Counted from the first letter of the whole stretch, positions 11,387 through 55,374 are shown. The stretch: 55,702 nucleotides of DNA, filler included, from Jimgerdemannia flammicorona (GCA_003990765.1; 2 parts of 2 records of this genome joined end to end with filler, not necessarily neighbours in it); one strand, 5' to 3'. The notes: generated from the letters alone by a model not told the origin. A program made the numbers and translations.

Positions 11387-13065
11387 GGTGTCCAGTGAGT
11401 ACTTGATACTGAGGTCAGATCTCAGTGCAATTCTTGCATAATGTTCCTTGGGGATTTCAACTGCAAGGCTAGTTGGAATGAGCCTTCTTTCATGAGCAGG
11501 AACAGTGACTTGTTGTATAGCTTGAAGGTCTAAACCAATGGCTCCTTCTGACTATAGCTAAGAAATCTGAGCCTTGAGGTTGACTTGTATGAAATTGAGT
11601 ACAACTTCTTAGTCAACTGGTTGACCTTGGGTATCTTTGAACAGGACTAGAATCCTCTTAGACTTAGTAGTCTTTTTGGAATATTTAGTAGCAATGTGGC
11701 CAGACTAATAGCAAAAGAAGTAGGCTTCAGCCTTCTTAAGATACTCCTTTTCCTCAGGTATAAGTTTGCTCTTCTTGTTCTTATTGATAGTATCCAAGTT
11801 CATGAGGGCAGATCCAATAGTTCTGACTTTGGTTTTCTCTCTTCTATAGTTATTGTTGAATGGCAGTCCCTTCTATTCAAAGTAGTGATTATAGGTAATA
11901 ATATCAAACCTATTAGCAATTTTCATTATCATGTCTAGGTCTTTGAATTCTTCAAGTTTGATATGAACTCAGGTTTGTCCTTTCAGACCTCAGATATACT
12001 TATTGATCTTATTATCTTCAGTAACATAGTAGCTCTAGTAAAATAGATATTATATACTTATACAGACTTAAGTTATTTGATATTTACTAGATAGTTTTAT
12101 ATAGTCTTGATACTATTGATTAGTTTGAATTGACCTTGAATGGCATCTGAGAATTCACTCCAAGTCTTGATTCAGTCAGAGAATCTGGTATTCTGAATAT
12201 GATTTTATTACCAGATTATAGTATTTTCTCAAAAGAGTATAGTAGTAAATTGAACTAGTATTGCTTCTTTCAAATTAGTCAGTTCACTATATTGCTTCAA
12301 TTGAAAAAGTCAAGTATTAATAGATAGTCCTCCTCTTTGGTCATCAAAGGTATCAGGCCTCTGAGGCTTGATGGTGACTACTGTTAGAGATATTGATATT
12401 AGTATAGATATAGACTAAGTAGGGGCCTTATTGTTCAATTTGTCTAAGTAATCTTAAAGTTGGAAAATCTGAGTTAATATAGTATGCAAAAAACTTTCAA
12501 TAGATCTAATTGACTAATTGGGGATCAGCTATTTATTCTCTTCTTCTTGCTAATTATAGAAGATATTCTATAAGATATAGATATTATAGAAGTTTCTATC
12601 TTAGTCATTGATATCTATAATATTGTAACTGATACTTGAGAGGTTTCTTATTTAGACAAAGTATAACTTAATCACTGCTATTAAGTATAATGGTTCTGGT
12701 TTCTAAATAAGGAAGTAACTTATTCTAGAAGTTTCTAAATAGCTTAATAGTTACTTGAAGTTCTGAAAGATCTTATAAGTTCTGAGAGAAAATATTTTAA
12801 GCTTTATTCATAAGAACAAAGGGAATATTTATATCAGATCTGAAGAAAAATCTAAGAAATCAAAGGAAATACCAAGAGGAAAGTTCTCAGCAAAGATGAT
12901 AAATAAAGTTCTATAGATTTCCATAAAGTTTCATAACTAGCTAAAAATATTCTAACTAAAGCTTAGTGCTAAAAAAGAATTTCTAAGCATTCAGAAAGTA
13001 CTAGAAGGTTATAGAATATTTAAGAAAGATAAAGAAAAAGAAGTAAATTACACTGAAATATTATA
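11387..13065 (-). mobile_element. Truncated Ty3/Gypsy LTR retrotransposon: 5' LTR, gag, CCHC knuckle, N-terminal half of dUTPase
   Basis: Colinear with the element at 14577-16620. Degenerate knuckle (AYFFCY*SGHIATKY) continues in frame into EGAIGLDL...IPTSLAVEIPKEHYARIALRSDLS. Breaks off at about 11387. Many stops arise from C>T changes. Confidence 0.85.
12624..13065 (-). repeat. 5' LTR of the minus-strand Gypsy-dUTPase element
   Basis: Reverse-complement homologue of 14577-15041. Begins TATAATAT (from TGTAATAT) and ends ...CAGTTACA. Confidence 0.8.
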
Positions 13066-13420
13066 TTAATACTATAAAGATCAGAGTTGAAAATACTATA
13101 TTAAAGGAGTAAAGTAGGCCATAATCAAAACTTACTATAAAAGCTATATATCTCTATAAATTTCTAGTCAAAGTTTAGATAAATATATTGAAGAATTTCG
13201 CTTATTATATATATTAAAGCAGAAAGAGGAAAAGAGAGTAATTAGCAGTGAAAAATCTACTATTAATAAATATAGAACTGTCATCAATAGATAAACTCAG
13301 TATTTATCTAATTAGTAATTAAGTAGTTCTACTAGAGAGTATAGAGATACTCAACTAGTAGAAGATGAATTATTATTTTCCAAAGAGGTAGCCAGTAGAC
13401 AAGACTGATAGTCAATTTTA
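13066..13420 (+). mobile_element. Heavily decayed hAT transposase C-terminal fragment (older copy of the family at 17841)
   Basis: Aligns to about 21180-21490 through C>T/G>A changes: TACTATAAAGATCAG vs TACCACAAAGATCAG; GCAGAAAGAGGAA in both; CTCAACTAGTAGAAG vs CTCAACTGGTGGAAG. Confidence 0.75.
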
Positions 13421-32146: not shown

Positions 32147-32508
32147 CTGAACCTATACAACTATCAGTACCAACTCTGGAACTTAGCAGTTTTTTCTATC
32201 CTAGCATTTTATTTTAGTTATTGAAATTTATATTTAGCTTTATATCTTAGTAACCATTGAATTATATTTTGTATAAATACTCCTCTTATTTCCTCTGAAA
32301 TAAAGTCAGTTCTGGTTCACTTACATATACTTCTTTGCAAGTAATCTAAGAGATAACAAGACAGTTAAAGATAAGAAGTTTGAGGACTATAAGACCTTGG
32401 GAAGGCACTCCAATAAGAACTTGCTTATAACAAACTTGAGTTAGTCTAAGAGATACACCTTGAAGAAAATCTGGCATATTTGAAGGACTCAGTGACCACT
32501 ATGTAACA

Positions 32509-33386
32509 CTATATAGAGAGTTGGCTGATCTTGGGCATCAAATATCTGTAAAGGTTTTAGCAGATTCTTAATACTTGTAGCAGACTCTCTGAGCTTTAGC
32601 AAGCTTTTCAGTAAGTACAGTTCTGGTATAGAAGACTGTTTTTTGAGTAGTATTAAGATGGAAAGAGAGATGGCTATTATAGATAAGTGAAAGAATAATT
32701 ACAGTAGACCAGTCAGATATTAGATTAGTAATAGTTATTAAGACTAGTATAGATACTATATCAGTGGAGCCTTCTGATTAGTACAGAGAAGTTAAGTAGT
32801 AAGTATTACTCTTGATAGCTCTCAGTAATATATAAGCTTAGACTCTAGTTATTTGAGATCATTGAGAGAGCCTAAGACTACTTAGATTAGATATTTAAGG
32901 TATACTCAACTAGAACTAAGAGCTGATATGATGATATAACTGAGATCTATAGACTTGAGTAGTGGGATATTAGAGATCTCCTCTCACTTTATATATAAGT
33001 TCTTCACTTATCCTATTGAGGAGAATCAGATTCTACCTACTGTTTTATATCTTTTATAAGAGTTTTTCTTTACCTGTTTCTCTATTTGAGATTGTAGAAA
33101 CTTTGCTATCTGGCTCTGATATAGCCTTATACATACATTAGAGTTTTAGGTATATATATTTAGTTATTAGTATATGGTTATTTTTTCTCTAGTAGTAGAG
33201 AGAGTATGATATGCAGAATGAGGTATAGGTTTTTTATTCTTGCTATATCTGATATAGTAGAGCTATTAGACAATAGTAAGCTTAGATTTATAGAGGTATA
33301 GCATTCAGGAGAGAGGTGGGGTTTTGGTCTATATAGTCTAGATTTTCTTCTAATAAAAATCTATAGAACATAGAGTCATTTTTTTT
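32509..33386. repeat. Unclassified interspersed repeat (copy 2, inverted, heavily C>T/G>A mutated)
   Basis: Inverted homologue of 1-842. Cut on the left by the Gypsy LTR ending at 32508; ends in a T/A tract on the right. Confidence 0.75.
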
Positions 33387-33574: not shown

Positions 33575-36313
33575 TCATCTTATATAATTATCTATCTATA
33601 TCTATCTCAATCATCTATCCATCTCAATTATTTATCTCATTTATTATTATTATTATTATTATTATAGTATTATAAAATTTATATAGTAATTTTCTTTTTA
33701 AAAAATATAAAACTGGTAGAAAATCTTATATATATAAATATTAAATTTATAGAGAGATATGAAAAAAGTTTAAATAAAAATTCTGACTCTGTCAAAGTTG
33801 TAGTAAATCAAGCCATATTACAGAGTTTTTTTTTAATATATTTTTTTCTCGTTATGTTCTATACCTTCGAAGTTTACTAAAATTTATTGAGGTTTATAGA
33901 TTTGCCGCACTGTACATGTGGCCAGCCAGACCAGCACAGTCTAACCAATACACTACAACACTAGCTTACATTGAAGTATTATAAGTATTATATATATATT
34001 TTTTAAGGATCAAAACGCTCAGTGATTCGCAGGTGGTCACATCCATCAACTCGTCAACCTCCTCGCTCGCAAGACCCTTCAATCCTGCGCCGAAAGACCG
34101 ACAAATATGTTTGAAGAGTTGTTTTTTTTGGGATTGAGAAACGAGGCGACGTTGCTCGTTTTGATTTTGCAAACCGAGTGGTCGAAAGATGGTAACATCC
34201 CAACAGGAAATCATTTGACTGTATACCTCCATCTCGGCAATTACACTGGTTGGACTCGGTAAACCGATCCTCATGCCACTATTGCATCAGGAATACACAA
34301 CGGGGCTCTCTTAATTTTCGTGGTGTATGATATAAGGTGACTACAAGTAATTAAACTTCCGCACTCCACCGCCTATACACCTTCCCTAAACACCCTGCTA
34401 CAGCGACGAACCGCCGAAATTGGTCCCTCTGCCAAGGTCATCCAGAGTATTACAGTGATACTGCTTTCCCATCGTTCTGTAGTCCATCGCCGTACTGCGG
34501 TCGTCTGCGGTCCATCGTCATTTTGCGATCTGCGGTTCATCATCGTTCTGTTTTCTGTGGTCTATAGTCATTCAGAAGTCCTCGGCGTTTTGTGGTCCAT
34601 CGTCGTCTTGCAGTTTATCGTCACCTACCATCGTTCGGCAGTTAACCATCGTTATGCGTCGAAAAACGGCCCTATCTGTATATACATCCTTGATTATTAA
34701 TATTAAGGCCCACGTAAGGGTGCCAAGTACCTATAGAAAGGCCTCGAGAGCCGCACGGCTTGCGTACAGTTCGTACGGGTTCTGAGGGCCCTGGCACAAT
34801 GCAAATCACGCCATTGTTCTACTGCCTTAATTTCGACGCGTCAAGCTTTACAACAGTACACACAGTACAGTATATACACAGCCCTATCCGTGAATCTTGT
34901 TACCATGACCTGTCAACTTCGTACAAGTCTTCTTGTGTAGCCGCCTACCTTGAGTTTCCGTATGCCCACTTGACTCGAATGTTTCTGTATACTGTGTTTC
35001 GAATCACCATATCGTCTCACAATGGTGTTATGCAACTTCTCGCTTTAGATTCTCTTATTCACATACTTTCGGATATTGCCATACAGGTAATTTCTTCGGA
35101 ACCTCTATTGATCGCCGCGACCGCAGTTATATTCGTCAGCTTATCGGGGAACCGAACGGATGCTGAGCCTCAAGTAATGGTAAATGACGTGTGTTGAGAG
35201 TTTTGCTAGGAGTTCGTGCGGTACAAGAAGAAAAAAAAAAAAATTCCGGCTTATAAGTGGACAATCCAGTCGTCGACATGCTCTAGAAACAGGTGGGGTG
35301 TCGGGGAAGGTGTCAGCTTGTTTGAGATCCTGATTTCGCTTTGTAGGATGGTAGGGTGACCGTGGCGGCAGTCGATGTCTTCATATATTAACTGTGGCTG
35401 TGGTGGCATGTATTGCGATGAGGTAACTAATAGGCAGACACAGGAGACGGAAGTGAATGAAGATACTAAATTCTACTACACGAAACACACTACCACCCTA
35501 AGAGTTATTTTTAAGTGATTTCAGAGATGAGCATCCTTAAAAAAATATATCGTATACTCTTCCCTATGTTGTTCAAGTGGTGATATGCATATGTCGCCTT
35601 TGCTTCGCTTTCAAAAATTTATTTCACCGCTTGACGTTCGTTGTGTTCGCTTTTAAACTTAATTTTGGCTATCATGATACGATCGATTGCGTTCCATGTC
35701 AAAAATCGGAGGCCTCGAATGGCACAGCGTGTTCAAAAGGAATTGCCCGTCAGAAATCCATTGTGACCCATAAGCGAATTGTGACCTATACGATTGCTGA
35801 CAATATCTCACAATACCCAGTCGTGACTTCCGAAAGCGATCTGAAAAGCGTCCATAGAAACCAACTTTATCGGCACACCCGCTGCAAGCTGACATCTACC
35901 AACGAGCATGTAGAGGCACGGTTCAGCACGTTAACGATATCCAAAACGTTAATACGCCGCTAGGGGGTGCGGTCTTGGATCCGTTTCATTCCATTTGGCC
36001 TATGATGACGTAAGTCTCGCTTTGGTAAGATAGCAGTGGGAATGAACTGGTAACCGAAATGATAAACAAAATCAATTCGGCGCCAAATACCGCTAGCGGC
36101 GCCATTAAAGAAGAAATATGCCTCATTCCAGTTAGACTCACCAACCGATTTATATAGGTTTATAGATTTGCGGCGTGGGAACGGGATGAGTCAGACGAAT
36201 TATTCCTAAGCCACAACAGACCGTTACCGATAACTACATTAACCCGACCCCTTGCCAATCAGAAAATATTTCAACAGTGAAGAGTTAACTAGCCCCACTT
36301 CATCTGCCACAAA

Positions 36314-38205
36314 ATGTACACAATCAACCCCGCAGAACAACCCATACTCACCGCGACGGCAATCGTCCTCCTCAGCTACCTCCTGATCCGCGCAACATCA
36401 AGTCGCAAGCCCAAGCTGGTCGTCCAGCCCTGGAACAACATACCCATTCTCAGCATCAAGGAAATGATTTATCCGCCCCAAGAGGATCCGTGGAAGAAGC
36501 TCGTCACCATCGCCCAGGACCCTCGAAATTACCCGCTCTGCGCCATCCCCGGCATCTTCAGCGGAGCGCCAAATCTGGTCGTCAATGATATTGACATGAT
36601 GAAGGAAGTATTTATCCAAGGACAATCCTATGGCCACGGCGAGCAAAAAATGGCGAGACCTAGAGACTTAATCACCATGAGCTATTACCTCTTTGGAGGA
36701 CGGCACATCGCCAACTCAGACGGTCACGTAAGTCATTTGGTTTCCGTTATGATTTCTGGAATTTTTAACAATGGTCCTTCATTTCACTGTCTAACAATTG
36801 ACGCTCCCCTCCACTGACTGCGCACAGGAATGGAAATGGCGTCGCCAGGCCTATTCGCCACCCTTCCAGCCGAGATTCCTCGTTCCAGCCTTGCTTCCTT
36901 ATGCCATCGAACGCGTCCAAAAACTCAACGAAGAGCTTGCCAAACTCGCAGCCACAGGAGAGGCCGCGGAGTTGGATAGCGAGATGAGCCACGTTGCGTT
37001 CGACATTATTTGCAAATATTGCTTCGGTTATGCTGATGAGGAACTCGACTTCCAAGACGTCAACGGCAGGGAAAACCTCAAGGTAGGAGAATCAACCTTC
37101 ATCTTTCGCATGCGTGACTTTTTTTTTCCTTTCAAGGGGATCCAGAACCATTCTGGCCTTTTAAAATTGGAAATGTCATGAACATATCTCGCAGAATGAA
37201 TTCGTCGCCCTCTTCGGGAGCATCGCCTCCGTCTACCCCCGCATTCCCATTATCAAGCACACTGAATGGGGTCAGCGTCACTACAAGCCCGCCCGCGAGC
37301 GCCTTGACGCCTTTATCAATCGCGCCATTAAAAAATCCCTCGCCCAGCCCGACCTCTTCCTCGACAGCAATACCGATAAACCACGTTTCCGCCCTCTAAT
37401 TCACGAGCTTGCCAAGAATACCAACTTCGAGGAGGGTACCGATCATAGCCTCGGCAGGGAGATCCTTGCCACAATCTTTGCGGGACATGACACTACCTCG
37501 CATACATCTTCGTTCGCACTCGGTGCTATCGCCCAGCATCCTGAGGTCCAGCAGCGCCTTTTTGAGGAGATCAGGGGGCAGTTGGGACCTGACCCGATCG
37601 ATGTCGCTGCTTTGACAACTGAGTCGTTAGGAAGTATGAAGTATTTGACTGCAGTCATTAAAGAGGTCATGAGGATGTATCCGACCATCAATAACTCGTA
37701 TGTCGAGGCTCTAAAGGATACCACTTTAGGCGGAATGGCCGTCCCAGCTGGTACGTTATCCTAAACTCCCTCGCTCTTGCGCGTACAATGTCGTATTGAA
37801 CGTGACCTTGCAATCGCCAATCCCTTTCCTAACCATTTGCTACCTTATCACAATTCAGGAACCATCATACTCGCCAACTTCCGCGGCGCCCAGATGAACC
37901 CCAACCTCTTCCCGAACCCCGAAAAGTTTGACCCGACCCGTTGGCTCGAACACGCCGACGCCGACATCTTCCAGGATGTCGACCACATTGCGACCAGATC
38001 CTCCAAACCTGAGCTCGTCTTCGGCCTCGGTCCGCACGCCTGCCTCGGCCGTAATCTCGCCTGGCTCGAGCTTCGCATTTTGATCGCCGCAGTCGTGAAC
38101 AAGTTCAAGCTCAAGCTCAAGGAGGGAACCGCACTCGATACCTATACGTTTTTAACCATGTTTCCCAAGGATGGTGTGTGGGTTACGTTGAAGGAACGTG
38201 TTTAA
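36314..38205 (+). CDS. Cytochrome P450 (paralog A), intact, 523 aa; exons 36314-36727, 36828-37082, 37195-37750, 37859-38205
   Basis: GT-AG introns give an open 1572-nt CDS. N-terminal hydrophobic anchor, WKWRR (C helix), AGHDTT (I helix), KEVMR (ExxR), FDPTRW (PERF-like), heme motif FGLGPHACLG. Confidence 0.95.
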
Positions 38206-38475
38206 ACTGCCGGAGTCGGAGTCTTAAATGTCCTTGATGGTTGGGGTTGGGATAGATCTAAAATTGAGCTTCGACCAAGTTATAAACATTTCCTTTTCTC
38301 TCCAAAATGATTGTGGCATGCACACAACTCTTAAATAATGATTATTTAATTCCAATAAGTAGTTTATTCCCTAACTATTAGTTCTTGAATTTTTTTTTTT
38401 GTAAATAAATCACAAATGATATGTATATGCATTTTATAAAAGCACTACTATTTAGTACTCAATTGCTCTAACTGT

Positions 38476-38953
38476 TGTGATGGTTGATCTGAATTAGTAA
38501 TATGAATTAGAGGAATAGACATTTGATTATAGTATCTAAATCTGATTCCCAAATATAGCCTTGCAAAATAGCAGTCATTTCAGTAGTGTAGAAAACTTTA
38601 ACAACTGCTAAGATTCTGCAGATGTTGAAATATTTGCAATTATTGAAATCCTAGCAGATATTAAAAGATTTGATACTTGTAAAGAGTGACTTACAGAAAA
38701 TATAGTCATAACTTAGTCACTCTATAGCTGGTAAACTTGTATAAATATTCCTAATATCTAGAGTGAATAAACCTCAGATCAAAATAGTTTAAAGTAAAGT
38801 AAAAGCAAGAGAACTAGTAAGCCTGTAGGTAGATATACTTGAAACTCATCTACTCCTATATTCTGAGAACTCTGTAGAGTTAAAGAAGATTAAGTTTTTA
38901 AGATACATATAAAATCTGATATACTTATATAGTTATATATCTAATTATGCTAA
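38476..38953 (+). repeat. 5' LTR of Gypsy family 2 element
   Basis: Starts TGTGAT. Direct repeat of 44287-44769, differing mostly by transitions. Confidence 0.88.
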
Positions 38954-40689
38954 TACTATCTGAGACTAAGTAGCTAAAGTAATCTTTATGAAAGAAATTT
39001 ACCTAGAGATAGCCATGGCTATTTGCTTATTATTAGTAGTTCTGGACCTACTATAAAAGACCACCTATACTTAGTAATACTAAATAGCCAGACACTCATA
39101 AGACTATATAATAGAAAGAGTCATAAGAGTCAGAATTAAAGCACTTAAAGTAATTAGTATAATCTCTACCACAATACTTAATTGAAATACACTACAGTCA
39201 AAAGCTATAGAACAATAAAGAAATAATGACCCTATAGAGAAACTTGTTAAGAGATTTGCTAAAATAACTACCTATCTAAGAGAATGATAAAGAAAATCAG
39301 AGGAAGAAACTATTACTTAGTTCAGAAGTTTGCTGTTATCTCAGACAAGAAGAGAGATACCTGTTATACTTATAGAGAAAAAGACCACTACTCATATAAA
39401 TATATAAGTAAGATCAAACACAGGATCTAGCTAAATAATGTTACTCAAAATAAGGAATAGGCCAACACTATCATATTTGAGAAGATTAGATAATCTGATG
39501 AAGAAGAATAAGAGGTCAATCTTATATAGACTACTAAGAAAAATATCTATAAAGAACCCTATAATTAACTACTAGAGAGATTCAAAAAGAATCTAATAGA
39601 AAAATATATAGAGACTACTATAGAAAACTAAGCTAAAGAAATAGATCAAGATATAGAGTTGAAACAGACTGTTCAAGATATTATTTGAGAAACTACTCTA
39701 GCTAGTGAGAGAGAAAAAGAGAAGAAGCTTTATAAGACTAAGATCTTTAAGTATAATATCTTCTAGGATCTCAACTAACAAAAGATCAATGCAACCTTTG
39801 GCTAGCTGGCAGAAATCTATATTTAGATAGCAAATGAGATTTGAACTTGCTGAGATAATTAAAAATTAAGACTGAAAGATAACTGAAACCAATAATATTC
39901 AAAAAGACTCTAGAGAAGAAAGTAAAGATAATTACAAGACCTCTGCCTATATAATCTGTCAGATTGAAGATAGAGTCTTTAATGCCATCATTGATACTGG
40001 AGCAAAAAAATGCCTCTTTAGCAAAAGAAATGGCAGACCACTTAGGTTAGGAGGTTGAAAAAGTAATAAAATTGGTATTTGTTATAGTAGATAGTATAAG
40101 AACTATATTTCTGAGAAAGATCTAAGATATTTCTATCAAGTTTGGAGAAATAACTATTCCAGTAGATATAATTGTGACTAATACAACCAACTATAACATT
40201 CTTATTAGCAATCAATAGCATTATAAAGCTAGAGTAATAATTGACCTAAATACCTAAAAGTTATAGATCATCTACTATAGACAGAAGCTACAAATTTTCA
40301 TTAATATTAATAAAGAAGTTCTACTCAAAATAGAGAAATAAGAAAGTAAGCAAGAAGAATCTTAGATAATATCTATTTAGAAAAAAAAAAAAAAAAAAAA
40401 AATTTTAAAAAAAATTTATTAAAAAAAAAAAAAAAAAAAAAGATTGGATAGATGAGTAAAGAAGACTGATATAAGAAGATTACTGAAAGATATATATTAC
40501 AAAGAGTCTATTCTCATAGGATCAGAATATACTATATAGAGTATATCAATAATTACTACTAGTATACTATTAGAGTCAAGAAAATCTATTATCAAAAAAG
40601 AGAAAAGACTCTCAAAGAACAAAAAAGGACAAAAAAAGAGAAGAATGATAAATTATTAATCCTTCTGATGAATAGTAATAATAAAGAAG

Positions 40690-41107
40690 AAATTAAGATC
40701 AAGATTCAGAAGATCTACTCTAATATAGTTCTAATAAAAGATATATATATATCAGAGAATATAACTAAAATATATATCACTATAGTAGAGAAAACCATAC
40801 TTGAATCTCAAACAATCACCCTACTCACAACTGGTCTGAAGATAACTATTCCAAAAAACTATATTAAACTCACAAGACAAGAAGTAATCTGATCAGGAGC
40901 AATATCACTATTGAAGGAGAAGTCATTGATTCAGATCATATTAGAGAAGTACTACTCATTAGTAGAAATCACAATTCTACAATCTCATTTCTCATCAAGA
41001 AGAACTGATTGGTGCAGATTTTGATCTTTTCAGTCTTATAGCCAAAGATTAAAAAAATTAAGAAGTTGGAGGAAACAGACAGAGAAAAGAAAGAATTTAG
41101 ATTTATA
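40690..41107 (+). pseudogene. Retrotransposon-encoded dUTPase domain, between protease and RT, hypermutated
   Basis: TTGLKITIP, TRSNL (motif II), EGEVIDSDHIRE (motif III), LVQILI (IV). LEETDREKKEFRFI reverts to RGxxGFGST (motif V) using only G>A/C>T reversions (GAA<GGA, AGA<GGA, TTT<TCT, ATA<ACA). Confidence 0.82.
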
Positions 41108-43785
41108 GAAGAGGAGTTTTTATCAGTACTAAGATTACTAAGCTAGACTACAAGAAAGAGAAAACTATGAATAAGTATAGCTATACAATTAGAAATAAAT
41201 TCTCACTCAAGAAGATACTCTATGAATTCAAGGATATTCTAGCTATGAATTTCAAGGATATTAAGAAAAAGACCTCAAACTACTACTATGATATAGATAT
41301 AGGAGATATTAAACCAATTTATCAAAAAGTAAAGTTAATTCCATTAGTCTATTGAGAATGGCTCAGAGAAGAAATCAAGTAGATAGAAGAAACTAGTATT
41401 ATCAAAGAAATCAGTAGTCCTTAGAGTTCACTAGTTATACTAGCTCCAAAGAAAGAAAGCAAACCTGGAGAATTTGTCTTAAGACTCTGTTCCGATTACA
41501 AAAAGCTCAACCTGATTACTAAGAAAGATCACTAACTACTGCTACTCATTAGTAACATTCTTATAATCCTAGGAGATAAAGTGTAGTATTATAGTATTTT
41601 AGATCTATACTTAGAATTCTACCAAATTAGCCTTACAGAAGTAGTATGTAAAAAGTCAGTCTTTATTATCTCAGATAGAATCTATGTCTACTTACAAATA
41701 TTATTCAAAATATATAATATACCAGTAAGCTTCTAGTGAATGATAAATAAAATCTTCTACTATGATATAGAAAGATAGATAATGGTTTATATAGATGATA
41801 TAATTATTTACAGTAAGACATCAGAGAAGTATCTATAATACATCCAGCAGATAATAGAGAAGCTAAGGAAGTATAGCTTATACATCAAGCCTAAGAAGTA
41901 CAAATTTGTAGAAATTGAGATTTTTTATCTTGCTCACATTATCAATTAGAATAGAATATATACAGACTCTCTCAAGATTCAAGAGTAGCAGTATATCTAA
42001 GACCCACTATCATTACAGAAGCTCAAGTCTTTGTAAGACTTATCTTATACTATTATAGATTTATTAGAGAATTTTTCAATATTGTAGACCTAATCTATAA
42101 ACTCAATAAGAAGGACATTAAGTTTCAATAGACTGGTAGATAACAGAAAGTATTCAATGAGCTCAAGATCAGACTGATCTAAGTACTAATCTACAGAAGA
42201 CCAGATTGATCTCAGAAATTTATTCTATAGATAGATGTGAGTGTATAAGAACTAGGAGTATTTCTGACCCAGTAGAAAGACAAAGTAGAGTATATCATTA
42301 TATATCTCAGCTGAGAAACCCAAGGAGCTAAAAAGAAATATAAATCATACAAGTTAGAGTGCCTTGCAGTCATCTGAGCTATAGAAGAGTTCTACTACTA
42401 TCTTATTAGAAGATACTTCACTATTCAGATAGACTATTCAGTCCTTACTTAGCTACTGACCACTAGATAATCTAAAGAAATTTATATCAGATTAATTATG
42501 AAGTTACAAGCCTATAATATAACTATTATATACTGCTTCAAAAGAATAAATGCTAATATAGAAGCTCTTTTATAAATACTTTAAAGAACTTTCAATGCAT
42601 AAACCAACTATAAATAAGAAGCTCTATTATAGAATTACCACCTATCTGAGATAGTGAAAGATGCCCCAATATCCGGAAGAATAGATATAAATGATTATTA
42701 ACAGAACATAGAAACAATTCAAGACTGATAGAGAAATATTAAAAAAAGAAAAACTACTAGTTATATCTGAACAAAAGAAGAAGCAAGTAATGAAAACAGT
42801 ATATAAACTTAACTATTTAGAAGGAAAAAATATATATAATAAAGTGAGAAGAACAATGTGATAATTAGGAATGGAGAAAGATATCAGATGATTTATCAAA
42901 ACCTATAATAAATACTAGAAATAGAAATAAGATCAATAAAATCAGATTCTGAGATCAGTATATATATATATAACTAGTACTCTTTATATATCATATAATA
43001 GATATAATTGGCTCTCTACTCTCGAATTTGACTGATAACCAATATATTATTATTATTATAGATTTTTTTTACAAAATAAATAGAAGTAGAACTTCTCAAG
43101 AAAGCTAATATATAGTCAATTACCAATTTCTTCTATAAAGAAATTATCTATCAATTTAAGACCCCAATATAAATAACTATAGATAGAGGAATAGAATTTA
43201 TAAACCAGTTCTTTAAGGTTCTCTATAAGAAGTATAATTTGAACTGGAGTCTATTACTCTCAGAGAAATGAATAAGTAGAAAGAACTAATAAGACTCTCA
43301 AGAACATTATTGCTAAGATCTATAATAACTATAAAAATTGAGATTACTAGCTGCCAATAGTATTATCTGCTCTCTAGGATATTTGATTATAAAGTACCTA
43401 TTTTATCTCTTAAGAAATACTATATAGTAAAGAAAGTCCTCAAGAAATCTTATCATCTAATGAAGATACTATATGGAAATACATAGATAAAGTAATATGA
43501 AGACTATACCAAATTAGAAAAAAGGTCAATGATTATATAACTAAGATACAGACTCTATAATAGAATAATGCAGAAAAGATTTACAAGCTCTTGAAAATTA
43601 TCAAGATAAGAGAGAAAGTTCTAGTATATTAGAATATAGTAGAAGCCTCATAGTCTCAAAAACTAGAGCTCAAGTAGAAAGAATCTTATCTTATACAAGA
43701 TATAAAAGAAACTATCTTTTGGTTTAAAAACTATTAGATACAATTATCTCTATTACTATCTACTGAAACTAGCTCATAAAGTATT

Positions 43786-44190
43786 ATGACTAACTAATAA
43801 AGAAATGCTACAGCTCTTAAGATCACCAGTACTATATAATGAGCCATAGAAAGATAATAGTGTTTCACTAAGCCACCAACTATAGAGAAATTCTTTAACA
43901 GTATTCAGAGTATATGTAGTATAGATATACTTATAATAAAATTCACATTTCAAGGCCTACTAGAACTAGACCGAGTTCTGAAATACTTCAAGTTGAGATA
44001 GCTACTAAACTTAAAGTCAGAAATGAAAAAAGAAAATTGAATTAGAGAGTATCAGCTCTCTTATATACAGATTACCATTACTAAGAGAATATATAAGTTA
44101 TTTAAAGAGAATGAGCCAGCTCTAGCTCATTTCTGAGAAGTAGCTCTAGGAGACTTTAGATATATCAAGAGACAATATTGAGATATATAA
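43786..44190 (+). pseudogene. Accessory ORF3 downstream of integrase (at least 135 codons)
   Basis: ATG overlaps the end of pol; single frame with transition-type stops. Contains ITKRIYKLFKENEPALAHF*EVALGDFR, which aligns without gaps to ORF3 of the element at 28720. Confidence 0.6.
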
Positions 44191-44286
44191 TAATATAAAT
44201 TATACAATATAAGAAGATTTAACTGATTAAAGGTTGGGAGTTTGAATAAAATATTTCAGAGATAAATTATCTATTTAAGAGATAGT

Positions 44287-44769
44287 TGTGATAATTTATC
44301 TGAATTAGTAATATAAATCAGAAGAATAGATATTTAATTGTAGTACCTAAATCTGATTTCTAAATATAGTATAGCTTTGAAAAATAGTAGTTATTTCAGT
44401 AATATAGAAAACTTTAACAACTGCTAAGATTCTACAGATGTTAAAATATTTGTAATTATCAAAATTCTAGCAGAGGTTAAAAGATTTGATACTTGTAAAG
44501 AGTGACTTATAGAAAACATAGCTACATATAACTTAGTCACTCTATAGCTAGCAAATCTATATAAATATCTTTAGTATTTAGACTGAATAAACCTCAGATC
44601 AAAATTGTTTAAAGTAAAGAGAAAGTAAGAGAACTAGTAAGCCTGTAGATAGATATACTTCAAACTTACCACTTTTATATCCTGAGGACTTTGTAAAGTC
44701 AAAGAAGATTAAGTTTTCAAGATACAAAAATCTGATATACTTATATAGTTATATATCCACTATATTATA
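44287..44769 (+). repeat. 3' LTR of Gypsy family 2 element
   Basis: TGTGAT start after a purine-rich remnant. Ends CCACTATATTATA (cf. CCACTATGTAACA at 32508). Confidence 0.88.
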
Positions 44770-45829
44770 TTATATACTTATATATATATATTAACTATAA
44801 ATAATTCTAAATATACTCTAAGATTATAGATAATAATTATTTCTTATAATATTATATCTGATATTTTAAAGATTAGAGATATTTAAATCTAAATCAGAAA
44901 ATAAATTTTATCTAATAATTATTATTATTATATTTAGATAATCTATTATAAATATACATATATATATACTATGAGTATATTCTTAGCTATATGGACTACT
45001 AATTATTTATTTGTATCAATTAAAATATATATATATATAGCTTTTTTACTATCAGAAGAGATAAGATTATAAATCTATACTTAATATCACTATAAAGATA
45101 GAGTTAAAACTACTAAGTAGAAGAACTAGTTGCAAAATAATAAAATAAAAATTATTTCTAAATTTTGTATTTTAAATATTATTCTTTATAATATAATCTA
45201 AATTTAGCTACTATCTAGAAAACTTTACTAATTAAGAGAAATCTGCTAAATCTACTATATTATGCAAAAACTATACTATTTAGAAAGTTATTAAAATTAT
45301 CTATTATATATAAAGAACTCACATACTTAAAAGTTGAAAACTACTCAATATTTTATTACTTTTTGACAAAGTAACTAAGGGCTTAAGTCAATCTACATAG
45401 TTACTCTAACTTTGTAATTTTTCTCTATTGAGCTGATATGTTATACTAGATAGATTAAGTATAGCTAATATATATTTAATTATATTTAATCAACTATATA
45501 AACTCTTTAAAAATATTTATATTTTATATAATCTTTAAACTAATAAGATTATTTTATATATTATAATATAACAAATTTATTAGTTAAATAGATATAATTT
45601 ATATCAAGTTAATATAATGATATATGTAGAGTCTATAAATGATAAGAAAGAGATACTATATATCAATACTTTATAAATTGGCAATATATATTAAAATATA
45701 TAAAAATACTATTTACTAATAATATCTGAGAAATTGACTTTATCAAAAAGGAAGCATTCTATTTTGGATTTTATATACCTAAATATGTATTGAAAAATAC
45801 AAATAAATATCGATACTTAGTATAGCTAG

Positions 45830-46290
45830 CTATATCTCTTCTAGATTATACTATATCTGGATGCTCTAAGACCCAATATCTTCTTAAAGATCATCAGCAC
45901 CTGTTCATACAGTGGTTACACCTGGCTGTGCTTGCCCTGTCATTTTTAGAAGAAAGTTGGATTATTCAGCCCCTCACAGCCAAATTGTTCAAAGATAATG
46001 TCATATATGGGTGCTCCGACCCCAACACCTTCTCTTTAATTACCAGCACCCATTTGAACAACAGTTCTGCCTTGTTGTATATACTTGCCCTGGCGGTTGT
46101 AGAACCCAGCCTGATTGTCCAGAGACGATGCCGTGTCTGGGTACTCTGATATGTAAAGTCGCTCCGCTTTGTCGTACATACCATAGCTTTTGTAGAACCG
46201 CCAAGATTTGTGCTTGGGTGTTCTGAACCTAGGACCTCCCCACGGACCCACGGATCGCCAGCGCCTGTTGGCAGAATCCGACGTACATCA
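45830..46290 (-). pseudogene. TPR-repeat (kinesin-light-chain/NLR-type) gene remnant
   Basis: Fragments QQALAIR..VLGSEHPST, EYPDTASSLDNQAGFYNRQGKY and KAELLFKWVLVIKEKVLGSEHPYMTLSLNNLA in shifting frames. Decays into AT-rich DNA on the left. Confidence 0.8.
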
Positions 46291-46462
46291 GCACCCCGTC
46301 ACGAAGTTCGAGAGAACTGCGTGGATATCGGGAGCAGAGCATCGGGAGGACAGCCAGGTTGAAGCTCGGGTTGTGCGGAGCAGGAATTTTGAGGTTGGTT
46401 GGCTGGCCGAGCCGGCGGCCACCGAAGATGTTTTTCCAGGACGATTAGTCCATCTGCCTGGC

Positions 46463-47025: not shown

Positions 47026-47075
<50 letters not shown>

Positions 47076-47360
47076 AATGCGCTTGGCGAATTGTCCCTCC
47101 CTTTCGATTTTTCCGTTCGGGCGTATCAACGGGCCCACTCTTTTTCACCCAGAATCCTTTGCATACCAATGAATTGAAACAGTTTCACAAAAATTAACCC
47201 AATTGCTGTCCCATTCCTCGACATGGGAAGTTCATTCCAAAGCCACAATAGATTATTCCTCATATATACCTATATTAATACTGCTGGACCCGACGCCTTG
47301 CCAAACTTCAGAAATCATAAACGGTGAAGAGCTAGCTAGTTATACACTATCACTTGCTAC
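46463..47360 (+). repeat. Upstream region duplicated with P450 paralogs B and D (counterpart 53136-53975)
   Basis: Colinear blocks such as GTGACGAGACGGTTGGT, ATAATGAATTGTGGA, CCGTAAGCGAAT and GCTTGGCGAATTGT occur in both. Confidence 0.85.
47029..47074. repeat. (CT)23 microsatellite upstream of P450 B
   Basis: Read directly. The counterpart upstream of paralog D (about 53764-53782) is much shorter. Confidence 0.95.
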
Positions 47361-49262: not shown

Positions 49263-50029
49263 ACCGCTGGAGACAAAGTCTTAAATATCCTTGGTAGTAA
49301 GGGTTGGGATAGACCTAAATAGACTTCAGTTTCGACCAGGTAATATGTCCTTTCGAGCTTTTCCTTTTTGCTCAAACATGGTTATGGATAGAATGTAACA
49401 CTTAAATAATGATCACTTAATTCCGATTATTCAAACATTTTTTCTGTAAATAAACCACCTTTGCACATTTCCAAAACAAACTGTCATTCGGTACTCAATT
49501 GCTCCAACTGTGCGCCTATGCCAACCGTAAGCGATCTCGAATTTATTTTAAAGCCACGGATGGCAATCGATCATTGTAATCTCATATCGGATTAAAAAAA
49601 GCATGTTCTCGCTGTCGGTCAGTTGTAGCTTTTTCACCGTCCCAGGGATGGAAGATTATAAACCTACGCCCAAGTGACTACAGAAGCAGAGTTGGAGCTA
49701 CTGAGTCGGGAAATTGATCGTAGGACAACTATAAAAATGATAGCATTTACGAAATCGCTGTATCGTGGTATAATCTAGGCTACTCCACAATCGCCTGACA
49801 TAACCCCCGGAAAATGCAATCTAAAATCCCACAACAAAAATTACGTAATGGCGCTACACAGCCATCCGGGAATCTGCGCATTACAGGGATCAACAACCTG
49901 CGATTGTGCATACAGTATTTGGGCTGCCTTCCTTGACTAGTGGCCTTTCCGGCAAGGTAGTGCCATCACAGAGTTTCGCAAAGGTCGTCTCTGACTTGGT
50001 GATTCGTGCTATCTTTACAACGCGGACAA

Positions 50030-51438: not shown

Positions 51439-53975
51439 ACTGCCGGAGTCGGAGCCTTAAATGTCTTTGGTGGTTGGGTTGGGATAGACCTAAACTTCAG
51501 TTTCGACCAAGTTATAAGCTTTTCTTTTTTGTTCCAACATGATTGTAGCCAGCACGTAGCTCTTAAATGATGATCATTTAATTCCGATCCATAGAATTTT
51601 CTCAAACCATTAGATGGACTCCTTTCAAAAAAAAAAAAAAAAAAAAAAAGATCTGTAATTACACTACCTTTGATATGCACATTTCCCAACCACAATGCCA
51701 TTCAGTACTCAATTGCTCTAACTGTGCGCTTATACCAAACGCAAGTGATTCCAAATTTAACCTAAGGCCGCGGATTGAAATCGTTCCTTGTCAATTTCAT
51801 ATCCGACATTTTAAGGATTAAAGAATTCCATGTTCTCGTTTATCATTGGGGAGATTGATGCCTGCGGCCCAAGTCTGATAGATGGTTGAATGGAAGCACG
51901 GATGAATGGATGGATGAATGGATGGAGAAAAATTGTGCAAGAGAGAGTTGGTCGTTGCGTTCGTCTGCTTATCAGTGGACCCTGATGGTTTTCACATATA
52001 AAATTCAATGGTCCACAATTGCACATAAATTCGCGCAGAACATTCAGTCCCATAATCTCGGTTTCTAGAACAGGCAATGAGCATATTTGCATTTGTCATT
52101 AAAATGTTACATAGTTGTTTCATTGATATTGTTTTTATTTTTCCAACAAAATCGATTGTTACCGCATGATGGACCGTTCACTTTCAGTAATCATAAATGC
52201 TTATTTCTGTTAAACACACGATATCTGTGATATATACCCCAGGTGTTCAGATCAATTAACACTGGTGTGGTGAGTTATATTGATAGCCGGCATTTAGTGA
52301 CATCAACAACATTGCAATCAGCTAGATTTCTCCTAGATTGTATACGCAGGCATTTTTCAGAAGGATTCGTCCGTCCGCCTGGTGAGGAACATGAGCAGAA
52401 TCGACATCCTGGTTAGGCACACCTGCCGCTACAGCAGCCCCTGCTGGGTCGGCCGTTCGGTTTTAATCCAAGGCGTGTAGGCTAGTTCGAGGAACTGCCG
52501 TGTTCGCAAATCAAATAGGACGATGATTTCTTCGTGGACGGTTATGGGTAGTTGGGTGAAGTGCATTGCGGACAAAATGGGGAGTGTTGCGTCATGCCAT
52601 CTAACTTGATGGCATCCGTAAGTATATACTTCTTCCGCCTCATACTTGACGATGTCTTGCACTCTCTTCCCGTATGTTCGTTTCGCCAAACCATTTGGCG
52701 AGTTCCATTCTCCACCCCAGGCTCTCACCCCTCGGCTGGCAGCGAGGCGGCACACATCGTTGGTGTCACTGGCCAAAATTTGGTACGAGGCTCCTTTGCA
52801 ACACTTCACTGTCGCAGTTTTTGTATGCGCAAAGTGGTCGTAGACTGCCCGAGTAATGTTCGCCTCACTGACAGCAGAAGGAAACGAGGACGAAAACCTA
52901 CGTATGCACAACATATATACGCTCTCTCTCTCTCTATGCAGCAGCAGAAGGACGGACGGCACTGAGATAAGGTGGAGTCGGAACGTTTTCGGGTGCACCG
53001 TGAACTACCACAAGCGCATACCATTTACAGTCGTTACCTCGACTGTTTTTTGTATACTAAATGTGGAGGAACACTGCCATATTAGAGAAGAATGAATGTC
53101 AGCAAGTGAACTGACGTGTTCACATGAGTTCGAGTGTGACGAGACGGTTGGTGTTTCTCGGACCTATCGCTATAATGAATTGTGGAAATTGGCATATCAA
53201 TATCGAGGATTTTGACGCCGACAGTAAAATAATTATTTCTGGCATTGACATAAGAAACTGCGTTGTGAATTCATTACAATAACGTTAACCTAATGAATGT
53301 ATTCTTAAAATTCTTCAAGACGTTCTCGCTATGTTGGCACAGTTTGTGAACCTTACAAAGTAATATACCGACAAAAATCTCGACCATTATCTCGTTGTCA
53401 TGATTTTTGTATTTCTCACGACCTCTTGCTATTATCGATTGATGTCATATGTATATTTACAACTCGTCATCAATGCAATACGTCACTATGTGGCTTGTGT
53501 TCTACGTAATCAATCGCAACGCAATGTTTGCAATATCAATAGAAATGCAAAAACCATATAACTACAACAAAATTAAAGCTCGACAAGTACCGTAAGCGAA
53601 TTGTGACTTATGGAAATGAAATAGGACATCCGAAATACAAAAAAAAAAAACCGCTGAATGAGTCAGGTTGCTGGGAGGAACGTCCTCTTAGAGACGTCAC
53701 TAATCAACACGTGGTTGAACCATGCCAAAGAAGAAATCCACGCGAGTAGTACGATCAGTGCTGTCTCTCTCTCTCTCCCTCTATAAATCCGCTTGGCGAA
53801 TTGTTCCTCCCTTTTGATCTTTCCGTTCGGGAATATCAACGACCCCGCCTTTTTTCTCCGAGAATCCCTGTATGATAGACAATGAGCTCATCACAAAAAT
53901 TAACCTCATTCCTACGGTCCCATTCCTTTGACCATCAATAGCGAAAGCTAGATACACACCATCGCTTGCGACAAA

Positions 53976-54867: not shown

Positions 54868-55374
54868 ACCGTCGGAGTCCGAGTCTTAAATGTCCTTGGT
54901 GGTCGGGGTCGGGATAGACCCAAATAAACTTCAGTTTCGACCGGATTATATGTCCTTTCGAGCTTTTCCTTTTTCCTTAAACATTACTATGGACACCACG
55001 TAACTCTTAAGTAATGAGCATTTAATTTCAATCCGTAAATGCTCTTCTTTCAAACATTTATTCTGTAAATAAACAACCTTTGAAATGTATATATACATTT
55101 CCTATAGCAATCGTTCCTTGAAATCTCATATCTGACAATTTAAGGATTAAAAGAATGCATGTCCTCTTTGTAGCTTTGGTTACAGCAACTAGAGATATTT
55201 GAATCTAAATCTTACCTAATGGCCAGTGGCGTGCTCCCAGCTATCTCGGTCGCTGACCGCTTGTTTGTTTGCGGAGATGCATAGTTTTTTCACCATCGGA
55301 GGGAGGAGGGGAAGGGAGATTATAAACCTGTGCCTCTGGGTGGCTTTTTATGGTTGAGGAAAGACACGAGTGTG

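Follow-up and report, generated by a model that had tools for sequence, protein, structure and literature searches.

Within the window, by which we mean the whole analysed stretch of 55,702 nucleotides, we observed a regional C>T hypermutation of both strands which, after a Ty3/Gypsy LTR retrotransposon had inserted, struck this element and, as far as about 45.9 kb, the host DNA on its right side. The hypermutation depends on the base 3′ of the cytosine (CpA ≈ CpG > CpC > CpT) and not on the base 5′ of it. Taken as a whole, we regard it as somewhat probable that these data reflect a mutator of RIP-like type, probably coupled to DNMT/heterochromatin, whose host is an Endogonales-like Mucoromycota fungus. 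To our knowledge, no RIP-like process has been described in Endogone-type early-diverging fungi.

Table 1. Coordinates of the mutated element, its flanks, the comparators and the other mutated blocks of the window.
Feature	Coordinates	Strand	Remarks
Large inverted repeat, left arm	11500..13065		partner 14577-16502; both arms partly mutated, left more
Third hypermutated block, hAT-like, in inverted-repeat spacer	13067..13375	+	GC 0.24; mutated copy of 21179-21468 (GC 0.53)
Second hypermutated block	32508..33344	-	GC 0.32; repeat copy whose unmutated copy is 1-842 (GC 0.56)
P450 copy A, spared	36284..38205	+	aligns to residues 36-563 of Endogone sp. P450 P0002, 50-53% identity
Left flank, unaffected	38206..38330		vs copy C, 124 aligned bases: 6 forward, 7 reverse transitions, 7 transversions
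Left flank, mild decay	38331..38475		transitions 10 forward, 3 reverse; C/G at 38 sites of the paralog
Left target-site duplicate, unmutated	38471-38475		ACTGT, final 5 bases of left flank
5′ LTR	38476..38948	+	pairs with 44287-44768; GC 0.281; G/C kept at 35/54 transition sites
Dead Ty3/Gypsy interior	38949..44286	+	reverse transcriptase ~41485-41940, RNase H ~42141-42515
3′ LTR, more mutated of the pair	44287..44768	+	GC 0.247; G/C kept at 19/54 transition sites
Right target-site duplicate	44769..44773		ATTAT, mutated from ACTGT
Host right flank, heavily hypermutated	44774..45141		368 bp homologous to P450 B, C and D flanks
AT-rich stretch, presumed hypermutated	45142..45842		GC 0.08-0.24; composition and residual-C context like proven flank
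Transition zone, partly mutated TPR-like unit	45843..45960	-	GC 0.40, climbing back
TPR remnant, unmutated, frameshifted	45961..46300	-	weak TPR_10 match; CpG o/e 0.98 (46001-47000)
Copy B flank, comparator, ancestral-like	49263..49729		alignment to copy A flank
Copy C flank, comparator	51439..51824		empty insertion site at 51721-51725
Copy D flank, comparator	54868..55310		alignment to copy A flank

The carrier of the mutations is a Ty3/Gypsy LTR retrotransposon of 6.3 kb (38476-44768), with two LTRs, a target-site duplication (ACTGT) and a reverse transcriptase followed by RNase H. P450 copy A lies 270 bp upstream. The element has a GC content of 27% and its right flank one of 17%, both being C>T/G>A hypermutated. 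When stops were read as X, the interior matched the Pfam families RVT_1 (E 6.6e-10) and RT_RNaseH (E 2.6e-19). The mutated copy gave no Pfam match to integrase, and the region still aligns to an integrase-bearing relative at 28732-30590. Across three frames the interior carries 143-165 stops. Stops occupy 25 of the 314 codons aligned to the same relative, many of them of the type CAR>TAR or TGG>TAG/TGA, and transitions relative to it number 320 in the forward direction (C>T/G>A) and 114 in the reverse. The two LTRs are identical in 411 of 487 columns and differ by 54 transitions and 7 transversions; their identity of 85.3% over 477 positions rises to 95.7% if only purine/pyrimidine is scored.

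P450 copies B and C show the empty insertion site (...GCTCTA-ACTGT-GCGC). In copy A, ACTGT stands to the left of the element and ATTAT, followed by ATAC, to the right. The earlier note had taken the right flank to be homologous to the flanks of the P450 paralogs, and this was borne out by local alignment scores of 67, 73 and 50, or z = 20, 26 and 13 against 100 dinucleotide shuffles per comparison (shuffle means 19-20, sd 2.1-2.4). The matching segments are 44774-44879 with copy C, 44974-45035 with copy D and 45036-45141 with copy B. All six strings quoted in that note were found where it placed them or at matching places: ACTGTGCGCTTATA at 51721, ATTATATACTTATA at 44769 (also at 12049), CCAACCGTAAGCGAT at 49521, TTAACTATAAATAAT at 44791, ATATCCGACATTTTAAGG at 51799 and ATATCTGATATTTTAAAG at 44854.

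In the three segments together, 78 of the 118 paralog C/G positions are T/A in copy A, alongside 8 reverse transitions and 15 transversions. Three-paralog parsimony over 44774-44873 gave 26 forward and 0 reverse changes; the ancestral C/G there number 33, of which 26 were lost. The gene body of the P450 A lineage shows 36 C>T/G>A vs 49 T>C/A>G changes over 1411 sites, and the right flank differs from it significantly (Fisher p = 7e-12). GC is 0.12-0.23 in the copy A right flank (44774-45141) and 0.38-0.58 in the paralog pieces. The proposed passage of hypermutation from the element into single-copy host DNA stands, but the word "leaks" used for it is too weak: the mutation load of the flank equals or exceeds that of the element (C/G loss of 66% in the proven right flank vs ~44% in the element).

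The boundary postulated beforehand was upheld, in that the edges are sharp and the tandem P450 copies escape. Towards the gene, hypermutation ends within ~145 bp; in the opposite direction it stops inside a TPR pseudogene, within ~200 bp. At the insertion point, the loss of C/G steps from 10/38 on the left to 27/37 on the right (p = 7e-5), and the short reach of the leftward decay is seen in the counts for the two parts of the left flank (Table 1). The claimed rightward decay of ~1.1 kb into a TPR remnant holds by homology for 368 bp, and its final ~115 bp consist of a TPR unit that is mutated in part: 45843-45955 aligns to the adjacent unmutated unit 45993-46105 with a score of 35 vs a shuffle mean of 21 (sd 1.9). 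The middle 700 bp (45142-45842), for which no homologue within the window scored above shuffles, are presumed to be hypermutated from their composition. CpT makes up 71% of the residual C/G across 44774-45842, and GC is back at 0.53 at 45961-46462. The TPR identity of the remnant is itself tentative, the TPR_10 match (E 1.8e-4, 21.9 bits) being weak and under the Pfam cut-off of 27.5 bits.

P450 copy A retains its CpGs despite its tandem paralogs, as the earlier note had pointed out: CpG o/e is 1.03-1.10 at 36001-38000 vs 0.00-0.11 at 39001-46000. Copies A and B, which are 88.1% identical over 1910 bp, are untouched, and so is copy C. The pseudogenised P450 C and D were spared too (CpG o/e ~1.0).

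In the right flank, mutated sites amount to 24/27 for CpA, 23/30 for CpG, 16/27 for CpC and 10/29 for CpT (chi-square p = 1.2e-4). Two independent copy pairs repeat this order, and pooling the flank with them gave CpA 73% (150/205), CpG 74% (70/94), CpC 45% and CpT 28%. The order is weaker in the element when it is compared with the related Gypsy (CpA.51, CpC.48, CpT.34). The 5′ neighbour was without effect in four data sets (.53-.71,.46-.54,.45-.58 and.42-.44). Between 56 and 71% of the residual C/G in all AT blocks is CpT, vs 24-25% in unmutated DNA. Of the 73 flank mutations scored for context, only 23 fall at CpG, as do 34 of 228 in the pair 32508-33344/1-842, so the spectrum goes beyond the CpG deamination that had been named as its possible explanation. 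CpG, CpA and CpC are indeed all affected, as had been claimed, but the process is not context-blind: the 3′-neighbour hierarchy is reproducible, has CpA on top and is RIP-like.

RIP is commonly called at TpA/ApT > 0.89, (CpA+TpG)/(ApC+GpT) < 1.03 and a composite index > 0, and stricter tools ask for a substrate index <= 0.75. Across the eight 1-kb windows of 38001-46000, TpA/ApT was 1.04-1.23 and the composite index exceeded 0 in seven. The substrate index, (CpA+TpG)/(ApC+GpT), was 0.84-1.07, lying below 1.03 in six windows and reaching 0.75 in none.

At least three further AT blocks of the window, all derived from repeats, bear the same signature. The block at 32508-33344 shares 93% purine/pyrimidine identity over 844 positions with 1-842, from which it differs by 229 forward and 31 reverse transitions and 50 transversions (CpA 94/134, CpG 34/46, CpC 69/168, CpT 31/118). 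For 13067-13375 against 21179-21468 the corresponding counts are 79, 7 and 16 (CpA 32/44, CpG 13/18, CpC 22/41, CpT 12/44). The dominance of C:G to T:A changes by which canonical RIP is recognised is thus found in the flank (78/8/15) and in both pairs. The arms of the inverted repeat show purine/pyrimidine identities of 96% and 89% and transitions of 98 vs 41 and 91 vs 38 (CpA 0.49-0.63, CpC 0.30-0.32, CpT 0.15-0.22).

Repeats, whether as an LTR pair, an inverted repeat or dispersed copies, are present in every mutated block, so that a purely chromatin-guided process is not established; in two of the blocks the repeats form close pairs that enclose a heavily mutated stretch. A purely homology-triggered process is not readily expected either, given the unmutated partners at 1-842 and 21179-21468 and the untouched 88%-identical 1.9-kb P450 tandem.

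Other transposons of the window lose CpG only. The LINE (22-28 kb) and the Gypsy element at 28.6-31.5 kb have a GC of 0.38-0.58 and a CpG o/e of 0.00-0.26, vs ~1.0 in genes, which points to CpG maintenance methylation. Decay of this DNMT1/DNMT5 type, with GC retained, thus occurs in the same window. However, CpG methylation-deamination cannot have made the AT blocks, because these lose CpA, CpC and CpT cytosines as well.

Under the RIP-like reading that we favour, the repeat inserted downstream of P450 copy A would have seeded a silenced (heterochromatic) domain, which spread into the adjoining single-copy DNA. Either an enzyme of the DNMT family or cytosine methylation with subsequent deamination may have acted as the mutator over that domain. 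The domain would be bounded by P450 genes that are transcribed or selected, and a separate process of maintenance methylation would underlie the loss of CpG alone from the other transposons. The overall interpretation of the earlier note is retained here as regards the non-CpG, flank-crossing hypermutation, the sharp edges, the spared P450s and a probably early-diverging host; the spectrum is not context-blind.

Canonical RIP is premeiotic, belonging to the sexual cycle, and strikes every copy of a duplicated sequence. Several features are shared with the RIP of Pezizomycotina: C>T/G>A changes affecting the two strands, an influence of the 3′ base that favours CpA, a transposon killed by CAR>TAR and TGG>TAG/TGA stops, sharp-edged AT-rich blocks and mutated single-copy DNA beside them. 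Neurospora RIP follows the order CpA >> CpT > CpG > CpC, whereas here CpG equals CpA and CpC exceeds CpT. Also unlike Neurospora, the flank is mutated no less than the repeat, linked duplicates of 88% identity escape and the substrate index falls only to 0.84-1.07. Leakage of RIP into flanks is cited by Testa et al. 2016 (PMC4943192) from Irelan et al. 1994 and for Leptosphaeria avirulence genes; the same paper gives the trigger of RIP in N. crassa as a duplication of ~400 bp with at least 80% identity.

In Neurospora, DIM-2 can drive RIP together with DIM-5 and HP1 (Gladyshev & Kleckner, 10.1101/115501), a form called heterochromatin-related RIP, and DIM-2-dependent RIP is described as spanning the whole linker and flanks, whereas RID-dependent RIP spreads only ~150 bp (10.1101/2021.04.05.438447). 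Our blocks resemble the DIM-2 type, as non-repeated linker and flanks are mutated across whole segments: the 5.3-kb LTR-to-LTR interior, the flank (66% lost) and the spacer inside the 11.5-16.5 kb inverted repeat (79 vs 7 in the compared piece) are all heavily mutated. In Neurospora itself, DIM-2-type RIP is still homology-triggered, and a review gives the methylation preference of Neurospora DIM-2 as CpT (PMC13297926), which is the least mutated context here. RIP-like C>T changes in repeats outside ascomycetes are reported as TpCpG hypermutation of transposons in Pucciniomycotina (Horns et al. 2012, PMC3318451). That process is confined to TCG, whereas here the base on the 5′ side makes no difference and non-CpG sites account for 50 of the 73 flank mutations scored for context.

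Native AT-rich composition or AT-biased neutral drift of non-coding DNA, with no targeted process at all, is a scarcely credible explanation of these data. Changes on the B, C and D lineages are mildly GC>AT biased (1.3-2:1), but the flanks of these copies and pseudogenes C and D keep GC at 0.38-0.58 and CpG o/e at ~1.0 over the same or a longer time, while forward changes outnumber reverse ones by ~10:1 in the flank and, in the two pairs, by 7:1 and 11:1. This explanation is refuted for the proven flank and for both copy pairs. Editing by an AID/APOBEC-type deaminase, with retroelement cDNA or transcribed single-stranded DNA as possible substrates, comes close to being refuted and is very improbable. 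Retroelements are the classical targets of such enzymes and C>T/G>A is their product, but the host flank was mutated post-insertion (ACTGT to ATTAT), the two strands of the right flank are equal (C>T 35, G>A 38) and the 5′ neighbour, which defines deaminase preferences, is flat in all four data sets. Passive decay, that is, long dense methylation in all contexts with spontaneous 5mC deamination, would need neither a dedicated or episodic mutator nor repeat recognition; we consider it unlikely. Slow methylation-driven loss of such size does occur here, as CpG-only decay removed 75-100% of the CpGs from other transposons in the window. Moreover, seven comparisons revealed no strand-coherent tracts of mutation, a result that also counts against the RIP-like reading, and an effect of the 3′ but not of the 5′ neighbour is in keeping with the site preference of a methyltransferase. 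What speaks against passive decay is the scarcity of transversions beside a large loss of C (7 in 487 columns of the LTRs; 15 vs 78 in the flank) and the abrupt step at the insertion point.

It is quite improbable that the host assignment is wrong and that a Pezizomycotina ascomycete acquired these mutations through ordinary, leaking RIP of the RID type. Classical RIP does show C>T/G>A changes with CpA as one of the preferred sites, AT-rich blocks and leakage into flanks (PMC4943192). The TpA/ApT and composite indices agree with it, and a feature search of a protein atlas, given without alignment or identity, labelled generic P450 clusters "commonest Ascomycota". However, no ascomycete P450 was among the close matches when 5.8 and 1.84 billion proteins were searched. 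The closest named relatives belong to Endogone sp. FLAS-F59071 (56% and 43% identity), the two best representatives overall share 54% and 47% identity, and the 10 best representatives looked up include 2 from Jimgerdemannia and 0 from Dikarya. RID-type RIP also fits poorly with GC-rich transposons depleted of CpG only, with the untouched P450 duplicates and with CpG and CpC being mutated far more than CpT. These relatives, all of one gene family, suggest an Endogonales-like Mucoromycota host and speak against Pezizomycotina. The host is probably an early-diverging fungus, a case that the earlier note had considered, and the ascomycete with canonical RIP that it had set as the opposing case is not where the P450s point.

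The RIP-like mutator that we favour would thus differ from Pezizomycotina RIP in its host as well: RID is described as confined to Pezizomycotina and is reported absent from Endogonales, whereas DIM-2-like homologues are reported in Endogonales and Glomeromycota (PMC9963178). Badet & Croll present RIP-like signatures as unique to ascomycetes, and their Table S14 classes Endogone sp. and Jimgerdemannia as "no_rip". In the same table, k-mers whose enrichment in non-coding DNA exceeds 2-fold number 13 in Endogone sp. and 23 in Jimgerdemannia, with 0-5 in the other Mucoromycota rows examined, and TATA is enriched 3.1x and 4.0x in the two, respectively.

We describe with high confidence a stretch of hypermutated DNA in which the mutation followed the insertion of a retrotransposon, is regional, acts on both strands and is sensitive to the 3′ neighbour of the cytosine. 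Its edges are sharp, one at a gene and one inside a pseudogene, and it recurs on repeat-derived DNA. Between 38 and 46 kb GC is 0.21–0.34, versus 0.47–0.51 on both sides of these 8 kb. All six sequence strings quoted in the earlier note were found, at the positions it gave or at matching ones.

In the right third of the window a cytochrome P450 gene is present four times in tandem (A to D). For A and B, the alignment to an Endogone sp. P450 spans residues 36–563, and the two share 88.1% identity across 1910 aligned bases (151 transitions, 77 transversions); in C and D, stops and deletions disrupt the gene. Because the four tandem paralogs supply the ancestral state of the flank, the locus is a natural assay: it shows, one base at a time, which way the mutator works, in what context, how far it extends and where it stops. 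The segment upstream of B (46463–47334) is homologous to that upstream of D (53136–53946), with 96% purine/pyrimidine identity over the first 97 bases, so the repeat unit of the array takes in a promoter-side segment. Upstream of B, at ~46950–47080, there is a (GA)n/(CT)n microsatellite. Among ten ORFs around the locus tried against Pfam, seven had no match.

A dead 6.3-kb Ty3/Gypsy LTR retrotransposon (the element, 38476–44768) starts 270 bp past the stop codon of P450 A. Its reverse transcriptase and RNase H are detectable with stops read as X; it holds 143–165 stops per frame, and stops account for 25 of the 314 codons alignable to a related element, with many CAR>TAR and TGG>TAG/TGA changes among them. 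The empty insertion site is seen in B and C (...GCTCTA/ACTGT/GCGC). In copy A the left target-site duplicate is ACTGT and the right one ATTAT, followed by ATAC. Inside the element, some 65 bases at 40380–40445 are nearly pure A/T, perhaps a purine-rich tract that has been converted throughout, or else a nested poly-A tail.

Features of the P450 array, the element, its right flank and two mutated copies (forward, C>T/G>A; reverse, T>C/A>G; CpN fractions, ancestral cytosines lost/total per 3′ neighbour)
Feature	Position	Compared with	Details
P450 copy A	36284-38356		
P450 copy B	47334-49427		
P450 copy C	50040-51588		5′-truncated
P450 copy D	53946-55032		internally deleted
Element LTRs	38476-~38948 and 44287-44768	each other	85.3% identity over 477 bases; 95.7% if purine/pyrimidine only scored
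Flank segment alignable base by base	44774-44879	copy C flank	
Flank segment alignable base by base	44974-45035	copy D flank	
Flank segment alignable base by base	45036-45141	copy B flank	
Mutated copy (GC 0.32)	32508-33344	1-842 (GC 0.56)	229 forward, 31 reverse transitions; CpA 94/134, CpG 34/46, CpC 69/168, CpT 31/118
Mutated copy (GC 0.24)	13067-13375	21179-21468 (GC 0.53)	79 forward, 7 reverse; CpA 32/44, CpG 13/18, CpC 22/41, CpT 12/44

The right flank, that is the host DNA 3′ of the element from 44774, was aligned locally, with transitions tolerated, to the flanks of the other P450 copies and to 100 dinucleotide shuffles of each. The real flanks scored 67, 73 and 50 versus shuffle means of 19–20 (z = 20, 26 and 13), and three unrelated control regions scored 17–22. 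The homology on which the earlier note had relied is thus confirmed. Since four-way MAFFT alignment was unreliable past ~44874 (23 and 14 transversions per bin), pairwise transition-tolerant segment alignments were used in its place. Over the three aligned segments, 78 of the 118 C/G of the paralogs are T/A in A, with 8 reverse transitions and 15 transversions. Parsimony with three paralogs over 44774–44873 gave 26 forward and 0 reverse changes, 26 of 33 ancestral C/G being lost.

To the left of the element the decay is indeed short, as previously proposed: 6 forward versus 7 reverse changes at 38206–38330, and 10 versus 3 in the final 145 bp before the insertion. C/G loss across the insertion point is 10/38 on the left and 27/37 on the right (p = 7e-5). 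The body of P450 A shows 36 forward and 49 reverse changes over 1411 sites (flank versus gene body, Fisher p = 7e-12), and its CpGs are retained, with CpG o/e ~1.0 in the P450 genes versus 0.00–0.11 at 39–46 kb. The mutation has left the tandem P450 copies and the DNA flanking them untouched, pseudogenes C and D included; as these two escape as well, coding selection is not the reason for the escape.

The earlier estimate of about 1.1 kb of rightward decay stands by homology for 44774–45141 and by composition alone for 45142–45842. No homologue of the latter was detected anywhere in the window, nor any partner on either strand in the B, C and D flanks, the TPR remnant, the region upstream of B or the C–D spacer. 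We count it as part of the mutated flank on its composition: its GC is 0.08–0.24, and CpT makes up 71% of the residual C/G over 44774–45842. GC then rises from 0.19 to 0.47 between 45700 and 46000, within a TPR-like unit (45843–45955) that aligns to an adjacent unmutated unit. The TPR assignment itself is weak (21.9 bits versus a Pfam cut-off of 27.5).

Loss in the flank depends on the 3′ neighbour (CpA 24/27, CpG 23/30, CpC 16/27, CpT 10/29; chi-square p = 1.2e-4) and is independent of the 5′ neighbour (0.53–0.71). The earlier observation that CpG, CpA and CpC are all hit therefore holds, and this spread beyond CpG excludes CpG deamination alone as the source of the flank mutations. The absence of a 5′ effect, together with the equality of strands (35 C>T versus 38 G>A), likewise excludes cDNA editing or an AID/APOBEC-like pattern. 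Pooling the flank with the two copy pairs in the table gave CpA 150/205, CpG 70/94, CpC 107/236 and CpT 53/191.

The two LTRs differ by 54 transitions and 7 transversions, and more mutation has fallen on the 3′ LTR (G/C lost at 35 sites versus 19 in the 5′ LTR, p = 0.04). The flank has lost 66% of its C/G and the element interior ~44%, the latter counted as forward differences from a related Gypsy that is itself 15% diverged by transversions. On these figures the flank is mutated no less than the interior of the element.

Purine/pyrimidine-coded BLAST with words of 20 revealed that two further AT-rich blocks are mutated copies of sequences also present unmutated in the window (see the table); neither pair shows an effect of the 5′ neighbour. 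In a large inverted repeat (11500–13065/14577–16502) both arms are partly mutated, unequally and with the same context order. Its spacer holds the hypermutated hAT-like fragment 13067–13375 and 32-bp tandem repeats at 13588–13744. Across all AT blocks, 56–71% of residual cytosines are in CpT, versus 24–25% in unmutated DNA. The unmutated partner of the hAT-like fragment is the DNA of a 237-aa ORF (20777–21490) with no Pfam match, which we take by eye to resemble the C-terminal region of a hAT transposase. An AT-rich fragment related to the LTR of the element (33340–33598, aligning to 38666–38943) sits at the edge of the 32.2–33.9 kb AT block, just before GC rises to 0.51 at 34.0 kb.

A LINE at 22–28 kb and a second Gypsy element at 28.6–31.5 kb show plain CpG decay: GC is 0.38–0.58, CpG o/e 0.00–0.26, and (CpA+TpG)/(ApC+GpT) is raised to 1.3–2.0. 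Set against the all-context loss in the AT blocks, this means that the window holds two regimes of cytosine loss.

As to the agent, a 3′-neighbour rule with no 5′ effect would be expected of an enzyme of the cytosine methyltransferase type. According to two reports, RIP (repeat-induced point mutation) of the DIM-2/DIM-5/HP1 branch mutates the entire linker plus flanks, whereas RID-dependent RIP reaches only ~150 bp (10.1101/2021.04.05.438447; 10.1101/115501). Coverage of whole linkers and flanks here would fit the former branch. Against a DIM-2 reading, Neurospora DIM-2 methylation is said to favour CpT (PMC13297926), the context least mutated here. Passive deamination of 5-methylcytosine in all contexts would leave sequence that looks like the work of an enzymatic mutator, and the lack of strand-coherent mutation tracts, for which a runs test was negative in 7/7 comparisons, speaks for it; we nevertheless regard it as unlikely. 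The left/right asymmetry might come from what lies on each side, the 3′ end of P450 A (transcribed or constrained) on the left and the dead TPR remnant on the right, and read-through from the 3′ LTR might also contribute.

The evidence on the trigger is divided. On the side of homology, every mutated block contains repeats, in two cases arranged as closely spaced pairs; on the other side, unmutated partners exist and linked gene copies 88% identical escape. The earlier interpretation is supported in part: it stands in its description (C>T hypermutation of the element and host flank, P450s spared, CpG not the sole target), and our confidence in naming the enzyme, or in choosing between homology and chromatin as trigger, is low.

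The host is probably an Endogonales-like member of the Mucoromycota; this moderately confident placement draws on a single gene family, the P450s, at moderate identity, the CpG-type methylation decay and the repeat load. Of 1059 candidates in a word-indexed search of 5.8 billion proteins with the P450, 6 were matches; Endogone sp. FLAS-F59071 supplied the top two (56% identity at 90% coverage and 43% at 93%), and a green alga came next (41% over 47%). HMMER, run exhaustively over 1.84 billion representatives, gave only 3 matches at E <= 1e-30, the top two at 54% and 47%. Among the best 10 representatives inspected, two are from Jimgerdemannia flammicorona and none is from Dikarya; the remaining named entries are multi-domain predictions from animals or oomycetes. 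The search with the LINE returned mainly metagenome sequences, and its first named relative, Lichtheimia ornata at 26%, is a weak pointer. The RNase H of the second Gypsy (plants, Chara and animals at 35–50%) was uninformative, and protein atlas P450 clusters ('commonest Ascomycota') were set aside as feature similarity without alignment. Of the sampled sequence words of the window, fractions of 0.33 and 0.14 were present in two sequencing runs of one organism, with no RNA run among the holders listed.

RIP and RIP-like mutators are regarded as limited to ascomycetes (Badet & Croll 2025), apart from a TCG-specific process in relatives of rusts and smuts. The genome of Leptosphaeria maculans is heavily RIP-affected. 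Badet & Croll (2025, PMC12543289) concluded that ascomycetes alone carry RIP-like signatures, and used a ratio that requires relics to be annotated as repeats. Their Table S14 labels Endogone sp. and Jimgerdemannia 'no_rip', with 13 and 23 k-mers, respectively, whose enrichment in non-coding DNA is >2-fold, and TATA enriched there 3.1x and 4.0x; the other Mucoromycota rows seen have 0–5 such k-mers, and Leptosphaeria maculans (45, 0, 0) is likewise 'no_rip' (PMC12543289). CpA-centred RIP indices barely flag blocks of the present kind, and since degenerate relics have lost their repeat annotation, ratio screens call such genomes 'no RIP'. No account of RIP-like hypermutation in Endogonales or any other Mucoromycota turned up in the literature searched, which excluded the primary Endogonaceae genome paper.

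The process at this locus behaves like RIP with leakage. It differs from canonical RIP in its host, probably in RID, and in its order of sites. RID is reported in Pezizomycotina only, and DIM-2-like genes in Endogonales and Glomeromycota (PMC9963178). Provided that the host is as proposed, this would be a new variety of RIP-like process. We put forward, as a tentative and somewhat doubtful proposal, that Endogonales have a genuine repeat-associated C-to-T defence mutator without RID, probably acting via a DIM-2-like methyltransferase and heterochromatin, with the order CpA≈CpG>CpC>CpT. If so, RIP-like defence would be older than Dikarya or would have evolved twice: in an Endogone-type fungus, the origin of such defences, or of mutagenic use of the DNMT1 superfamily, would move before Dikarya, convergence being the alternative. 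Kingdom-wide screens would then have counted the relics of the mutator simply as 'non-coding AT-rich k-mers'. The proposal would also bear on the policing of the very repeat-rich Endogonales genomes, which reach up to 77% repeats according to a review (PMC10386755).

In the transposon-rich first 34 kb, CpG o/e is 0.00–0.57 and GC is often retained; in the genic parts (34001–38000, 46001–55702) CpG o/e is ~1.0–1.25. The switch at ~34.0 kb is sharp, which suggests CpG maintenance methylation restricted to repeats. The LINE (22000–28540) is Tx1/L1-like, with endonuclease–RT ORFs at 23986–26166 and more ORFs to 27513, a very strong G-over-C skew of 0.35–0.52, GC of 0.47–0.58 and CpG o/e of 0.21–0.37. 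A piece of its 3′ end recurs at 18801–19304 (-), 27034–27513 (+) and 27962–28465 (-). Two runs of 44 N (27803–27846 and 27859–27902), within the filler span, are the sole gaps in the window and lie at the junction of LINE copies. A 14-bp tandem repeat array (CATCYGAATYRCYC-like, C-rich strand) occupies 17945–18222.
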